50,888 nucleotides of DNA, from positions 1-50,888 of IMG/VR virus record IMGVR_UViG_3300050343_000151; one strand, written 5' to 3'. The translations under genes were made by a program, and so were the position numbers. The DNA is from a virus. Lineage: Duplodnaviria; Caudoviricetes. A model generated the notes under the pieces. That model saw only the letters and a list, made by a program, of their open reading frames with translations. It was not told where the DNA came from and made no database searches. The stretch's first letter is position 1. Every line of letters begins with the position of its first letter. Below, in pieces: positions 13,201-41,953 of the stretch.

Positions 13201-13270
13201 TATTACCCCTAACGGGCGTAGGTAGGAAGGTGGGTAATGAACGAACCCTTGTAACGACCTACGCCCTTAA
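13198..13270 (-). promoter_or_regulatory. Intergenic RNA stem-loop with anti-SD loop
   Basis: 10-bp perfect stem GGGCGTAGGT/ACCTACGCCC; loop ATTACCC is complementary to downstream GGGTAAT; no U-tract. Confidence 0.6.
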
Positions 13271-13274
13271 TTTT

Positions 13275-14141
13275 TTATGTGTAGCTTTCTCGTTGCCAAG
13301 AAGGTTGCGCCCATTCGCCTTCCGCTGGTGCGGTAGGTGATGTCATTGCTTGATCTAGTTTACCTAAATCAGAAGCATTAAATTCAGCAGCTTCATCTTT
13401 TGGTATAAAAGTTTTCAAGTTGGGTTGTCTACTAGCCATGATGGTCTGATATTGAGGGTCGTTAGGAAGTATAATCTTCTTAACTGAGTTCTTATCATCA
13501 GGGTAATCTGGGTTTGTGCTTTTCTCTAACTTGAGAATTGCAGCAAACTCTAAACCAGTCATTGCCATAAAACCGTCATCGCCAAGGTTAAACACAGCAT
13601 TGTTTGAACCATCGTTCATGACGTTATTTGCAGAAGATAATACATCACCAATAAAAGTCTCACTCATTTTTAAATGCATGAGAATTTTTTTGTACTTGGC
13701 AGCGTAATTATTTGCTGGGCTACCTGATGTACCGTTTCTTATTGCGTCTTGGATTTTTGGATAATGCGTAGCTTGAGTTGCATCATCGATTGTATTAAAC
13801 ATTTCCAAGGTTGGTTTGTCTGCAAGATCGCTTTGGATAGGGTGATAGGAATTCATCAACTGTGCATTGCCATGACTTAATACAGTCATAGTAAAAGGCA
13901 CTTGCCATGTTCCAGCTCCACTTAGATAAGCCTGATCTTGAGTTTTTACACCATTCTCAACTTGTTTTTGAAGGTGCTTGTGATTGATCGCAATGCCTAA
14001 AACCACGGGAGTTCCGTCTGGTAGGGCTTTACGTTCGTTTGTTTCCATGACTATGTTGTTCTCTTTTAAGAACTGATTCTTAGATTCAGCATGAGCCGTC
14101 ATAGTGGCTTTACTAAAATCTGTATTAAAGGTATTATTCAT
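13275..14141 (-). CDS. Putative single-stranded DNA-binding protein
   Basis: Follows the Sak4-like ATPase; flexible C-terminal tail ending PSW; AAGGAG SD. Confidence 0.55.
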   Translation of the reverse strand: MNNTFNTDFSKATMTAHAESKNQFLKENNIVMETNERKALPDGTPVVLGIAINHKHLQKQVENGVKTQDQAYLSGAGTWQVPFTMTVLSHGNAQLMNSYHPIQSDLADKPTLEMFNTIDDATQATHYPKIQDAIRNGTSGSPANNYAAKYKKILMHLKMSETFIGDVLSSANNVMNDGSNNAVFNLGDDGFMAMTGLEFAAILKLEKSTNPDYPDDKNSVKKIILPNDPQYQTIMASRQPNLKTFIPKDEAAEFNASDLGKLDQAMTSPTAPAEGEWAQPSWQRESYT

Positions 14142-15057
14142 AAGTTGTCTCCTTTGGTTTTGGAACAATAGGGGTAGAGATTGGTTTGGTTGTGCTTACT
14201 TTATTCTCTACTCCGCTACTTCCTTGCATTTTTTTGAACAAGTTTCCCCATAAAGGCTGTTCAATTCCCTCCAAGCGTCCGCTTCTATCTTTAGCAGGAT
14301 ACCCTCCAGGGTTGGGGCTAGTACAAACAAAAACTCTTTCGGGCTTTGTTGTGTCGTCTTTTTGTTTCACTGGAATTACCGCAAGTGTAATTACTTCGTC
14401 TACAATTCCAGGAAGTTCATTCTTAATTCGTCTACCTTCAGCTTCAATGACATAAGACTTACGACCTAAATCGTCTTCCTCAGTATTGAGTTTGCATGAA
14501 AATATAACTGTTTTCTCATGATTGTGTTGCCAATGGCGTAACGCACTTAGTACATCTGTTGCCATGTTTCCATAAACCCTCATCATATTATTTGATGTTT
14601 CTAAGGCTTTATGGTGGGCAAAGGCTCTCTTAGTTAGATCCGAGATACTGTCGATAAAGAACACGTCAGCGTCTTGAAACATTTTTTTCTCAGCCTCAAC
14701 ATTGTAACCAGCTTGACTTCTTCTGCTCATTACACTGTCGTGGTGATTTTGTGACATTGGGCTACTTGGATGTGCCGACTTATCTGGCCCACATGCTAAA
14801 ACAGTTATATCTAGAAAGTCTTGAAACTCACCAATCTTAATTGTTTGAACATGATCACCAGCTTTAGTGCGTAACCATTGGTTGACAGTCATTAATCCAC
14901 TTTCAATATCAAGTACAATAGTCTTCATATGTTTAGGGATAGTTTGAATAGTGTAAGTCTTGCCTACACCATACTGACCTGTTAATAAGATCTTAGGCCC
15001 TTGGCTTTCCAAGTGTGTAGCCCTTTGATCTGGGGTTATTATAGAATATCCGTTCAT
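14134..15057 (-). CDS. Sak4-like AAA_24 ATPase / ssDNA-annealing protein
   Basis: GQYGVGKT, LDIESG, FIDSIS, LPGIVDEV, AKDRSG. Confidence 0.88.
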   Translation of the reverse strand: MNGYSIITPDQRATHLESQGPKILLTGQYGVGKTYTIQTIPKHMKTIVLDIESGLMTVNQWLRTKAGDHVQTIKIGEFQDFLDITVLACGPDKSAHPSSPMSQNHHDSVMSRRSQAGYNVEAEKKMFQDADVFFIDSISDLTKRAFAHHKALETSNNMMRVYGNMATDVLSALRHWQHNHEKTVIFSCKLNTEEDDLGRKSYVIEAEGRRIKNELPGIVDEVITLAVIPVKQKDDTTKPERVFVCTSPNPGGYPAKDRSGRLEGIEQPLWGNLFKKMQGSSGVENKVSTTKPISTPIVPKPKETTYE

Positions 15058-15593
15058 TTGAGATCCTTTACAGTTAATTTATATGAGGGGGTTTTTTCAG
15101 TGATAGTTCTATGAGGCTCTAGAAATCCTCTAACGGCTTTAGCTAATGGTTCGTCACTTGCTTTAAGTTTAGTCCAATTAGTCTCAGATACTTCTATCTT
15201 TACAGTCACTCCACACTTATTTAATTGTTGAAGAAACTCCATAGCCTTATCATCTATATTACTAACGACCTTTAACATTGCCTTAGAATCCCACTTAATA
15301 GCTGTTGGGCTAGAAGCAGACACAGATACTTGTGGATTCTTAGAATCATTCCAAGATACTTGGCCGATAGTATTCTTTACCTTCCTAGCTTCTTCCGCAT
15401 GGCTGCTAAATAGGGTAGATAACACATCTTGAAATTGCAACGTCCGCAACTTTGTGTAATCTGCCGAACTTTTAATTTGTGACTGGATCTCAAGTAGATC
15501 GTCAGTATCTAAATTAACAGCACCATTGGGGTTTTGTGAGAGATCATCTAGTATTTCTAATGTTAAATTAGACTTTTCGTGAGCATTTTGCAT
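15054..15593 (-). CDS. Hypothetical protein (first gene of the replication/recombination operon)
   Basis: AGGAAGGT SD; helical N-terminus; lies immediately upstream of Sak4. Confidence 0.7.
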   Translation of the reverse strand: MQNAHEKSNLTLEILDDLSQNPNGAVNLDTDDLLEIQSQIKSSADYTKLRTLQFQDVLSTLFSSHAEEARKVKNTIGQVSWNDSKNPQVSVSASSPTAIKWDSKAMLKVVSNIDDKAMEFLQQLNKCGVTVKIEVSETNWTKLKASDEPLAKAVRGFLEPHRTITEKTPSYKLTVKDLK

Positions 15594-15710
15594 TTTTTTA
15601 CACCTTCCTAATGTAGGCAGACTACTAGAAACTGGAAGGTATGCTCGGATTAGAAACTAAATAATCTGCCTTAAAATTTGTTGATTCGAAGCATACTCGA
15701 ACCGTATGTA
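15594..15710 (-). promoter_or_regulatory. Structured 5' leader with alternative pairings over the SD
   Basis: 12-bp stem AGGCAGATTATT/AGTAGTCTGCCT; loop ATCCGAGCATACCTTCC can pair with upstream GTATGCTTCGAAT or downstream GGAAGGTGT. Confidence 0.6.
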
Positions 15711-15711
15711 G

Positions 15712-15830
15712 ACTTTTTACAGTAAAAATATAAATGCTTCAAGTATTAATTTTATCAATTCAAATAAATATTAATGCACATGCTATGTAAAAAAAACTTG
15801 ACAACAATTTACAATTGTCTGTAATGTGAA
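15712..15830. promoter_or_regulatory. Divergent promoter/operator region (lysis-lysogeny switch)
   Basis: Rightward TTGACA 15798-15803 with TGTAAT/TAATGT; leftward TTGAAG-N17-TAAAAA; palindrome TTTTTAC-A-GTAAAAA 15714-15728. Confidence 0.55.
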
Positions 15831-15854
15831 AAAATTATCAAAAAAAATATTTTT

Positions 15855-16805
15855 ATGTTGCGAAAAAATTTAACTAATATTATAGAAAAAGCTAAAGTGA
15901 GCAAACCTACAGATATATCTACAGAGTCAAACGCAGGTATAGGATCATATTTTGACAAAGAGGGTAAGTATGTACAGCGCAGACCCGAAGATAATTTCTA
16001 TTTTATTATTGACAGAATTCAGACTAAGCACGGTTTAAAGTTAAACGATGTTGCTACTAAAACAGGCGTTAGTGTTAAGACTTTATACAATATCCAAAAA
16101 GAATATAGAGAACCTGGTGAAGGTCACACTACTACTATTGGTGTGATTAATAAGGTATTTGCTGCTTACCCTAAATTTAAAAAAGAGTGGGAAGAATTTA
16201 AGGCAATTATGCCAATTGATAAAAAAGAGGATGTGGTTACAAATCTTACTTTTGATAAAGATATGTATGCAACTATTCCAGTGTTGGGTAATTGGTATTC
16301 ACAATTTGATGACTGTTCTATTTCTTCATTAGAACCGCAGCAAACGCCACAAATGCTATTTCCTAAATTCGTTTTAGGGGTAGGTGGTTATCAAGACGGA
16401 CAGTCTTTAAAGGGTTGGTATGCTTTAAACTCACAATCTCCCACTTATAGTGGTGTTAGTATTATGGCTGAAATTGGTGATGTTATTCCTGGCACTAAAA
16501 TATACAGAGCTTCATTGAATAATTGGTCAATCATTAAATTTAAAGATCAAAAAAGATATTTTAAAGGTTTAATTTATGCGTGTTTAGTACCTTCTAAAAG
16601 TGGTTTTGTTAATTTACATTTATCATATAGTAACTATGAAGCTGAAGGTAAATCACCAACTAAAGTTATTAACGATATACCAATGTCAGATATTGAATAC
16701 ACAATTCCTTTTGTCTTAACAGTAAGTCAAGTCACAGTCGGCTTATGGCAAAGCAGAATCCAAAACCAAAAAATAAACAACAATGACGAAAAGATTAAAG
16801 AATAA
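15855..16805 (+). CDS. XRE-type HTH repressor-like protein
   Basis: LNDVATKTGVSVKTLYNIQ HTH; IPVLG motif opening the C-terminal domain; divergent from the lytic operon. Confidence 0.7.
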   Translation: MLRKNLTNIIEKAKVSKPTDISTESNAGIGSYFDKEGKYVQRRPEDNFYFIIDRIQTKHGLKLNDVATKTGVSVKTLYNIQKEYREPGEGHTTTIGVINKVFAAYPKFKKEWEEFKAIMPIDKKEDVVTNLTFDKDMYATIPVLGNWYSQFDDCSISSLEPQQTPQMLFPKFVLGVGGYQDGQSLKGWYALNSQSPTYSGVSIMAEIGDVIPGTKIYRASLNNWSIIKFKDQKRYFKGLIYACLVPSKSGFVNLHLSYSNYEAEGKSPTKVINDIPMSDIEYTIPFVLTVSQVTVGLWQSRIQNQKINNNDEKIKE

Positions 16806-17022: not shown

Positions 17023-18025
17023 ACGATCTCGTTCTAAAAAATCTAAAAAAATAATTAAAAAATACTATTACTATTTTCGTAATAAAAAATTACATAAAAT
17101 AAATGTATCACCAGACCATCCACAATTTCATAAAATGTATACCGCAATTGATAGCAGCTTCGATGGTGCTACAACTCATGGTACTATTGAGTGGGCTTGT
17201 GATTGGTATCTAAAATCAAAACATCATAAGTCTCTTAGTGATTTTTCACAACGAGATGATAAAAAATTTTGTAAGGCTTTAAAGGAAGTGATAGGTGATT
17301 ATAAATTAAATTTAATTACCGCTATAGATGTTAGAGATTTTAAAGATGACTATGCTGAAGTTAAATCTAACGATGCAGCTAATAAGATTTTAAGTTTTAT
17401 GCGTAAACTTTTTAATCAAGCTGAACTAAGAGAGTTGCAACCAATTAATCCGTTTGCGAAATACGGCAAGTTAGCAACACTACCTAGGGATCAAAGGTGG
17501 GAAGATGATGAAATAGCTTTAGTGCATAAACATAAGGATGACTTGCATCCAAATAACTATTTAGTTTTTTTAATGGGATTGTATACGCTCCAAAGAATTG
17601 GAGACATTTTAGACCTAGATCGAGATCAATATGATGGTAAGAAAATATCTTTACAACAAGCAAAGACCTTGAAGAAATCAAGGAAATTGGTGGGTTTTCC
17701 AGTACATAAAGATTTAAAAATTGTACTTGATAAAAGTTTACAAGGACACAATCATCATAAACTGTTACAACAAAATTCGTACTGGAGTTTTAGAAAAGAT
17801 TTTGATAACTTCAGACGCAAACATAATTTGTCGCAAAAAAGATTTCATGATTTACGCAGAACAGGAATGGTTAAAATGGCTGAGTTGGGAGTAAATGATA
17901 TTATGATCTCGGCTGTATCTGGTCATAGTCTTGAGTCTACTAAAAGAATACTTGAAACTTACTTGCCGAGAAATTATAAAATGGCAAAGAAAGCAATGGA
18001 TACTTGGGAAAGTGGAAACCCCTAA
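16985..18025 (+). CDS. int: Tyrosine integrase
   Basis: Catalytic set: LQRIGD (R), QAKT (K), FHDLRRT (HxxR), SGHS (H), TYLP (Y). Confidence 0.95.
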   Translation: MKVNYPYLKIITRRSRSKKSKKIIKKYYYYFRNKKLHKINVSPDHPQFHKMYTAIDSSFDGATTHGTIEWACDWYLKSKHHKSLSDFSQRDDKKFCKALKEVIGDYKLNLITAIDVRDFKDDYAEVKSNDAANKILSFMRKLFNQAELRELQPINPFAKYGKLATLPRDQRWEDDEIALVHKHKDDLHPNNYLVFLMGLYTLQRIGDILDLDRDQYDGKKISLQQAKTLKKSRKLVGFPVHKDLKIVLDKSLQGHNHHKLLQQNSYWSFRKDFDNFRRKHNLSQKRFHDLRRTGMVKMAELGVNDIMISAVSGHSLESTKRILETYLPRNYKMAKKAMDTWESGNP

Positions 18026-18214
18026 CGCAAAAGTGGAAACCCCTAATTAATTTTTCGCAGTTTTCTAGTACGGCTCGATAGCTCAGTTGGTAGAGCAAAG
18101 GACTGAAAATCCTCTGGTTTATGCCCTAAGTCATTGATTTCATTGGATGGGGTTTCCACTTTGGAGTAAAAAAAACTCTATATAAATCAAGAAAAATAAA
18201 ATTAATTGGAAACC
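18009..18214 (+). mobile_element. attP site with arm-type repeats and IHF-like site
   Basis: AAAGTGGAAACCCCTAA at 18009-18025 and 18030-18046; inverted copy 18149-18162; partial copy 18206-18214; TAAGTCATTGATT 18127-18139; these flank a tRNA fragment. Confidence 0.88.
18072..18113 (+). tRNA. 5' fragment of tRNA-Phe(GAA), attP core; not a complete tRNA
   Basis: GGCTCGA-TA-GCTCAGTTGGTAGAGC-A-AAGGA-CTGAAAA-TCCT; anticodon GAA 18105-18107; no T-arm or 3' acceptor strand. Confidence 0.9.
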
Positions 18215-41626: not shown

Positions 41627-41953
41627 TTATTTGTTTAAATCTTCTTCTTGAATAATTTGCTCGGCAAGTATTCCTCGGTCGATTTGTTTCTTCAGATATT
41701 CTGTAAGCATAAAGAAAATTCTTGCATCATTTTGCAATTTTCTAACTGTGTCGACTTTAGTTGCATCGGTTGCAATTAGTTTTCTTATAGCTTCACTAGA
41801 ATCTTTTTTCGCCTGTGCTAAGACAGCCGATAAGCCTGTGTTGTCAGCTAATTCTTTTTCTATGTCCATTGCTTTACGAGCAATTTTGAACAGTGGGTCT
41901 TGAGCAAATTGATCAAACATTTGCTCTTCATTAAAATCTAAATCTGCGGGCAT
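41627..41953 (-). CDS. Hypothetical head-assembly protein
   Basis: Helical ~100-aa gene between portal and scaffold. Confidence 0.6.
   Translation of the reverse strand: MPADLDFNEEQMFDQFAQDPLFKIARKAMDIEKELADNTGLSAVLAQAKKDSSEAIRKLIATDATKVDTVRKLQNDARIFFMLTEYLKKQIDRGILAEQIIQEEDLNK

Follow-up and report, generated by a model that had tools for sequence, protein, structure and literature searches.

In the IncI-alpha (ColIb-P9), IncB, and IncL/M plasmids, the loop of an upstream hairpin in the repZ or repA leader pairs near the ribosome site, and the resulting pseudoknot is the ON state; in the repZ switch the partner lies in a stem that hides the Shine-Dalgarno (SD) sequence, a leader peptide opens that stem, and an antisense RNA blocks the switch (PMC4705826). 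Temperate phages P4 (CI RNA, with seqA, seqB, and seqC) and P1 and P7 (C4 RNA) carry an early-leader hairpin whose loop complements an upstream site, as described in two reports (PMC4825925, PMC12197685). In autoregulation of T4 gene 32, a pseudoknot is followed by more than 40 unstructured nucleotides that contain the ribosome site (PMC535899), and the E. coli rpsO operator is likewise a leader pseudoknot (PMC3985624).

Here we describe a leader of about 110 nt that heads the minus-strand early recombination and replication operon of a temperate phage, found in the window (the whole 50,888-nucleotide stretch analysed, a linear virus record). Comparison among relatives indicates that it is a real, conserved, structured, clade-restricted RNA, in which an invariant core accompanies a loop-loop helix that covaries. 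It would work most like the repZ switch, and its layout is like that of P4 CI, but by this comparison it is a member of neither. The leader shares with repZ a long-range pairing from an upstream hairpin loop, and in both an ON pseudoknot competes with an SD-hiding fold (for the leader, as predicted), whereas the partner in the leader is a second hairpin loop. Its likeness to P4 CI and C4 extends, in clade A, to complementarity between the loop of the long hairpin and a site at the start of the first gene; it differs in matching no model of those RNAs, in having this downstream target in clade A only, and in a first gene that is not kil-, icd-, or ant-like in the searches run. As with gene 32 and rpsO, a leader pseudoknot might be recognised by a protein that the downstream unit encodes, here one that handles single-stranded DNA, but the >40-nt unstructured stretch of gene 32 is not found in the leader, whose long hairpin ends shortly before the SD, whose fold is of the loop-loop type, and whose candidate single-stranded DNA-binding protein (SSB) is the third gene. 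The anti-SD and anti-anti-SD logic of SD-sequestering riboswitches is possible in clade A; unlike those, the leader has no Rfam family, ligand clue, or conserved anti-SD.

The operon and its promoter-like site

From position 15593 on the minus strand, the operon encodes gene 1, a Sak4-like ATPase, gene 3, a helicase, a Cas4-domain nuclease, and a primase-like gene (Table 1). No family scored above cut-off for gene 1 (DUF7173 is a lead only), and fold searches with a confident model (pLDDT 85) gave no clear match or solved relative (best Z 4.3). The wider unnamed family of gene 1 precedes Sak4/AAA genes in other phages. Gene 3 is possibly an SSB, given its place after Sak4 and a nearest named cluster, DUF669 at 0.88, that is a weak lead. 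Stop-start overlaps connect gene 1 to Sak4 and Sak4 to gene 3, and the first three early genes are probably translationally coupled.

Table 1. Positions of the features discussed, in the numbering of the window unless a relative is named.
Feature	Position	Strand	Remarks
E2 hairpin	13214..13266	-	directly after gene 3, 2.3 kb downstream of the leader; in 7/7 relatives examined
E2 in relatives	L139 5826-5912; L140 2578-2657; L142 3787-3881; L143 5834-5927; L153 2499-2577
Gene 3, 288 aa	13275..14141	-	family search without match
Sak4-like ssDNA annealing ATPase	14134..15057	-	phrog_124, E 5.8e-32
Gene 1, 179 aa, unnamed phage family	15054..15593	-	stop overlaps Sak4 start
AUGCUC, gene 1 codons 3-5	15581..15586	-	complementary to P2-loop GAGCAU; clade A only
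Gene 1 SD region	15600..15610	-	clade A has the non-canonical GGAAGG, the other leaders GGAGG or AGGAG
P2, long hairpin: 12-bp stem and weak upper helix	15615..15671	-	16-23 predicted pairs in homologs
Invariant core UCCGAGCAU (15649-15641) ... CYAGUU (15635-15630)	15630..15649	-	holds 3' strand of kissing helix, 15646-15639
Anti-SD segment AUACCUUCC	15634..15642	-	clade A only; 6-9 bp with SD in 5/8 leaders
A/U-rich single-stranded linker between P1 and P2	15672..15682	-	11 nt in the window
P1, short 5' hairpin, 7-8 bp, loop with invariant AUGC	15683..15703	-	pair probability 0.71-0.99
Kissing helix 5' strand GUAUGCUU	15689..15696	-	pairs with P2 loop, 15646-15639
Promoter-like site of the leader	15714..15742	-	-35 TTGAAG 15742-15737, 17-nt spacer, -10 TAAAAA 15719-15714
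Promoter-like site for the HTH gene	15798..15827	+	-35 TTGACA at 15798-15803
Divergent HTH protein	15855..16805	+	HTH families below cut-off, E 0.003-0.03

On the plus strand, the genes from 15855 encode a helix-turn-helix (HTH) protein, a 79-aa ORF, and a tyrosine integrase, followed by the 5' half of a tRNA-Phe. The HTH protein, which is 31% identical to its counterpart in locus L151, is a probable repressor, and the divergent gene with its back-to-back promoter is a conventional protein switch in this phage. The -35 hexamer of the HTH gene or a one-base variant lies upstream in eight of 11 loci; of the three loci that lack it, L140 and L153 are truncated by the end of the contig. Integrase-gene sequence lies no more than about 200 nt from the leader promoter in L148 (1-612) and L141 (1-280), with the HTH gene missing between, an arrangement that is either a deletion variant or a mis-assembly. 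Directly after the integrase lies an attP-like site (18012-18158, plus strand), in which the tRNA-Phe 5' half (18072-18112) is flanked by GTGGAAACCCC twice upstream and by the inverse of GTGGAAACCCC downstream.

The transcript of the leader is predicted to start near 15708-15706. Its promoter-like site was not detected by a strict promoter scan; a TTG...15-18...TA arrangement is present in all eight leaders, ending 61-67 nt upstream of the core, and the -35 is TTGACA, TTGACT, or TTGACC in five of them. A 15-bp inverted repeat (15714-15728, minus strand) overlaps the predicted -10 in the window; it is partly lost in L139, L145, and L147 and missing in other lineages, and is thus not a conserved operator.

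Two hairpins straight after an early promoter-like site, with an invariant loop sequence, could also suggest an antitermination RNA of the put or nut kind, acting on RNA polymerase shortly after it leaves the promoter; HK022 put RNA, a pair of hairpins, occupies the same position after an early promoter. We consider this very improbable: the operon strand has only one terminator-like site in 10 kb, fewer than in shuffles, and the element lies right against the SD.

Two hairpins joined by a predicted loop-loop helix

To find homologs of the leader, we searched contigs of viruses, metagenomes, and genomes with gene 1 and Sak4 and with alignments of each; the homologs comprise eight distinct leaders in five lineages: A1 (window, L139, L147), A2 (L140, L148), L142, L143, and L153. 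The whole-leader folding z-score of the window is only -1.2 (18 of 200 shuffles), so that the window alone proves little and the case rests on comparison. A preliminary description of the locus, made from the window, had placed a structured leader at the head of the replication operon, which agrees with the structured RNA that we find conserved just behind the promoter-like site.

The 12-bp stem that it had drawn around a 33-nt loop is present at 15671-15660/15626-15615, with two G-U pairs, and forms the base of hairpin P2. A direct repeat said to bracket part of the loop, AGTTTCTA, does occur at 15658-15651 and 15633-15626, on either side of 15650-15634, but it is not conserved: of the leaders compared, the window type and L147 alone have it in full. 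Pair identities in P2 differ between lineages while pairing is kept, and the lineages L142, L143, and L153 have 21-23 predicted pairs. The covariation in related phages that had been named as a check is thus seen for P2, as it is for the flanks of the kissing helix described below. MAFFT left P1 and P2 partly out of register, for which reason RNAalifold recovered only part of P2 and we used per-sequence tables. Within the P2 loop, the core UCCGAGCAU/CYAGUU, with about 14 invariant nucleotides, is identical in all aligned leaders. For comparison, only 8 of 72 four-fold silent sites in Sak4 are invariant across the five lineages; such sites are 34-52% identical between lineages, which is near saturation, and 68-69% identical for the pairs window/L194 and L197/L198. 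The distance from the end of P2 to the SD is 6-12 nt in all eight leaders.

The exchanges of G-U for A-U in P2 point to the transcribed minus strand as RNA. They bear on whether the element might instead act as DNA, either as an operator or as a single-stranded DNA structure. It does precede DNA-handling genes, and similar ambiguity has been noted for other motifs (PMC2864571, PMC5737381). Against this, the core is not palindromic, the G-U/A-U alternation is on the transcribed strand, and the element has a fixed place between promoter and SD, which together make a DNA-level function highly improbable.

Upstream of P2, across the A/U-rich linker, a short hairpin (P1) of 6-8 bp compatible with the loop-loop helix is found in the homologs, with the exception of L142, where no P1 is predicted. 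In clade A1, the sequences of both P1 arms are like those of the tRNA T-loop, a likeness that other lineages do not share. The P1 loop and the P2 loop are complementary over 8-12 contiguous bp in all 11 clade loci, and in 10 of 10 loci the upstream AUGC lies 50-53 nt from the GCAU of the P2 loop. The central four pairs are invariant and the flanks change (U-A/C-G, G-C/A-U, and A.C (mismatch)/G-C/U-A), so the covariation of this helix comes from only two or three positions at its flanks, seen across four loop types. Several controls bear on its significance. No kissing helix was found at any of 110 distinct chance sites with the same core elsewhere in viral contigs, a control whose criteria came from the homologs themselves. 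Among the 24 possible assignments of the four loop types, the cognate pairs rank first, and among seven leaders they fall within the best 24 of 5040. In an unfitted MAFFT alignment, 91% of kissing-helix cells are paired versus 11-57% for slid partners; the covariation score, computed with L142 out of register in the alignment, was reached by 21 of 500 shuffles. In each of the eight leaders, the duplex between upstream site and loop was matched by 1-83 of 1000 shuffles. When the helix strands are kept unpaired, both hairpins are still predicted in nine of 10 loci (L142 is the exception, for P1), and the conserved fold is therefore predicted to be a loop-loop pseudoknot. Its kissing duplex has a calculated energy of -11.6 kcal/mol in the window and is absent from the nested folding model.

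In the preliminary description, this upstream partner had a different role. It was read as an anti-anti-SD that could be hidden in a 5' hairpin, CATAC-N7-GTATG, letting the anti-SD segment close the SD. The pairing of CGAGCATAC with GTATGCTTCG does form, though imperfectly, as either 8 contiguous bp (one G-U) or 7 bp, a bulge, and 2 bp, and by our comparison this 'anti-anti-SD' pairing is the best-conserved long-range helix of the leader. The CATAC hairpin is also present (15708-15692), but its sequestering role does not follow: its predicted probability is 0.001-0.009 at 37 C and does not exceed 0.20 at 15 C; P1, which had been missed, outcompetes it and displays the upstream partner in a loop. 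All three pairings of this three-way switch exist in the window, the hairpin gains in the cold, and the CATAC complement recurs in L152. Nevertheless, an exact complement is found in only two of 11 loci and is missing from the close relatives L139 and L147, and the CATAC 5' arm begins at about the predicted start site. As a family feature the three-way switch is largely refuted, and as an account of the leader it is scarcely plausible.

The ribosome site and how it may be controlled

In the leader-only fold, the SD is mostly unpaired in nine of nine leaders (0.67-0.97). The preliminary description had also paired the P2 loop with the SD, ATACCTTCC (15642-15634) with GGAAGGTGT (15608-15600); this duplex stands in the window, with 9 bp and one G-U, but is a property of clade A and not of the family. 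It was matched by 2-4 of 1000 shuffles in the three A1 leaders and by 43-619 in the other five: in A2 it has 6 bp (101-143 shuffles), and it is weak in L142 (43), L143 (406), and L153 (619). Cognate loop:SD pairs rank 6 of 24. In the window, the nested model with at least 60 coding bases passes to an SD-blocking refold 10-12 kcal/mol below the P2 fold. This gap is about the size of the omitted kissing duplex, as a switch would need. The full refold dominates in only two of nine leaders (window and L147), and an alternative pairing that hides the SD, which a translational riboswitch would conserve, was found in clade A only. A family-wide anti-SD switch is thus not borne out, and the switch logic as first proposed possibly fits this phage and its closest branch without being the conserved feature.

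We tentatively propose that the leader is a kissing-loop translational operator for the first three early genes, with the kissed fold as the ON state. The starting points are the conservation of the leader, the covariation of P2 and of the helix flanks, its position, and its complementarities, all read from the aligned sequences. During transcription, P1 and P2 would form first and then kiss. The kiss would occupy the P2 loop and leave the SD, just past P2, open. The invariant UCCGAGCAU/CYAGUU core is conserved beyond the needs of pairing and would be read by a factor acting in trans; we infer that this trigger is most likely an early phage protein, for instance a product of the operon itself. 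If the kiss were blocked or broken, the freed loop is predicted, for clade A only, to pair with the SD and the first codons, turning gene 1 OFF. Through the stop-start overlaps, the shut-off of gene 1 would carry to Sak4 and gene 3. In favor of the operator, the spacing to both the promoter-like site and the SD is fixed. Against it, the predicted OFF pairing is not family-wide, as the shuffle counts for L143 and L153 indicate.

The same complementarities could instead belong to an antisense immunity RNA of the CI/C4 kind, in which an RNA of about 60 nt containing P2 is excised and pairs with the P1 loop (seqA-like) and the gene 1 start (seqC-like), silencing the operon in the lysogen. The order of promoter, upstream target, hairpin, and downstream target is as in P4 (PMC4825925). 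The loop is complementary to an upstream site on its own transcript in 11 of 11 loci, and the five clade A leaders have a bipartite downstream complement (SD and AUGCUC); the phage is temperate, and an A/U-rich single strand lies 5' of P2. However, while the downstream complement at the first gene is present in those five of the eight leaders and borderline in L142, L143 and L153 have no target at the gene 1 start, and no conserved target was found elsewhere in 3.4 kb. Searched singly, the C4 (RF01695) and c4-2 (RF02944) models match none of five records at E<=10, and the phage already has a protein repressor switch. Marine RNA libraries also bear on excision. Part of the region 13300-16800 is contained in 24 runs, and in the eight that were examined contigs cover gene 1, Sak4, and gene 3; single contigs in two runs (X2 and X3) bridge P2 and the gene 1 start, joining what excision would separate. 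The RNA-run pieces end at 15679 (X2), 15677 (X3), 15632 (X8), and 15608 (X4), and none of the pieces from these eight of the 24 runs covers P1 or the HTH gene. Because these are assembled contigs, which show neither strand, ends, nor level and may derive from DNA, they give no support for a processed end. On balance, we regard a CI/C4-like RNA as unlikely.

Two features of the repZ switch were sought in the leader. A promoter-like motif for a possible antisense RNA occurs on the opposite strand in two of six loci, at different offsets and not in the window, by a consensus scan that can miss promoters. Reading frames of 7-23 codons start at the invariant AUG of the P1 loop and share neither an end point nor a consistent SD; we saw no leader ORF preceded by an SD of its own.

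A compact pseudoknot-type fold with about 14 invariant nucleotides beside the SD might also serve as a small-molecule riboswitch or small ribozyme, with the kissed fold making a pocket from the invariant CCGA and CYAG. This is improbable given that the leader was found in a single phage clade only, that the downstream genes hint at no metabolite, that beyond clade A there is no conserved expression platform, and that no likeness to Rfam families was found.

A second hairpin after gene 3

A second hairpin, E2, not in Rfam, lies at the other end of the three-gene unit. It is built of a 9-11-bp outer stem of varying sequence, an internal loop, a GGG/CCC inner stem, and a UUCAU loop that is anti-AUG-like. 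A pyrimidine tract on the 3' side of its internal loop (13232-13223) is an exact 10-bp complement of the gene 1 SD region in the window. Cognate pairs of E2 tract and SD beat 62 of 5040 and 4 of 120 reassignments, among relatives that are not independent. As a target of the tract in about 3.4 kb, the gene 1 SD ranks best in the window, L147, and L195, second in L197, and fourth in L198, and lies outside the top six in L194 and L199; in L197, L198, and L199, the E2 loop pairs over 6-7 bp with the gene 1 start codon region. These comparisons suggest that the anti-SD and anti-AUG segments of E2 partly track the gene 1 ribosome site. The leader model (R1) weakly matches E2 in two lineages (E 0.3-0.5) and the E2 model (R2) weakly matches P2 in three loci (E 0.026-1.5), both with rough calibration. 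A further weak match to the E2 model (41858-41935, minus strand, E 0.11) lies where two late genes meet. E2 could either act together with the leader or be a hairpin in its own right.

One explanation that accounts for both elements is that P2 and E2 are processing or stabilising hairpins for RNase III or RNase E, bounding the message of gene 1, Sak4, and gene 3 and raising it above helicase and primase, with the kiss tuning cleavage. In T7, early RNase III sites occupy comparable places, as long hairpins just ahead of ribosome sites in the early operon. P2 and E2 are each preceded by an A/U stretch and closely followed by an SD, and the 5' arm of each is rich in purines. Their models weakly match each other's element, and the stem lengths of P2 are compatible with RNase III, with the 21-23 pairs noted above for L142, L143, and L153. 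However, the cross-matches are weak, and processing leaves the invariant loop core and the covarying loop-loop helix unexplained; neither the T7 RNase III sites nor put is known to require the two together. We therefore hold a processing role to be rather unlikely.

If E2 is a partner of the leader, the two might form a protein-free RNA circuit over the 2.3-kb message of gene 1, Sak4, and gene 3, acting as a timer or as a gate between lysis and lysogeny, a reading that we consider quite doubtful. The kissing loop would keep the ribosome site open on the nascent RNA, and E2, transcribed last, would fold back or work in trans to close the same site. E2 would then mimic the two RNAs of the initiating ribosome: its tract would resemble the anti-SD of 16S RNA, and its CAU loop, set on the GGG/CCC stem, the arm of the initiator tRNA. 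If true, this would explain the odd GGAAGG ribosome site of clade A, which is matched by both elements. Pairing of E2 with the gene 1 start over 2.3 kb, if it truly occurs, would be an unusual case of 3'-to-5' control of a phage recombination operon.

Distribution and significance of the leader

In the searches made, the leader appears restricted to one uncultured marine phage clade. A scan of viral contigs with the core pattern gave at least 119 loci in 16 of 64 parts, one of them in the clade, and a second scan gave 17 loci, of which eight are the clade leaders. On 91 non-clade loci, with L098-L136 excluded, the leader model gave one partial match (E 0.48); it matched one of 151 sampled genomes, the metagenome-assembled genome (MAG) that holds the phage contig, and found no leader in the cultured phages searched. 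Distant members of the gene 1 family (in AcaML1 and Yong-M3-232) are mid-operon and have no match to the leader model. Within the window, a second copy of an 11-mer from the P2 loop (544-555, inside ORF 175-711) is in coding frame and not kept in L191, and we attribute it to chance; chance repeats are seen for 36 of 2126 comparable 11-mers. Elsewhere in relatives, ATGCTCGG encodes Met-Leu-Gly.

The host is only loosely indicated by these records. The MAG with the phage contig is labelled Methylobacillus, but it matches the attP-like tRNA half at no better than 89%, and a search of 150 other genomes from its family gave no close Sak4. Relatives of the integrase are mostly alphaproteobacterial, at 24-27% identity.

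That the leader could not be assigned to a known family from the window agrees with covariance-model searches of Rfam 15. At the gathering threshold, the whole window gave only a tRNA fragment (18072-18126), the region 15500-15900 at E<=10 gave one miRNA match of 13 bits, and seven homolog loci at E<=5 gave four weak matches, none on the leader. No description of the motif was found in the literature compared, which included PMC8632094; the alignments of 8,495 IMG/VR candidate RNAs (PMC10690425) and the supplement of PMC5737381 lie outside that comparison. The leader is thus uncatalogued, in the sense of having no Rfam family, and an earlier computational listing is possible.

With eight distinct leaders from a single uncultured clade, the reach of these results is limited. 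Structured RNA control of phage early genes has so far come from a few coliphages and plasmids, and the leader adds a loop-loop RNA outside Rfam, supported by covariation, from marine temperate phages, one short enough to be probed and placed in reporters without the host.
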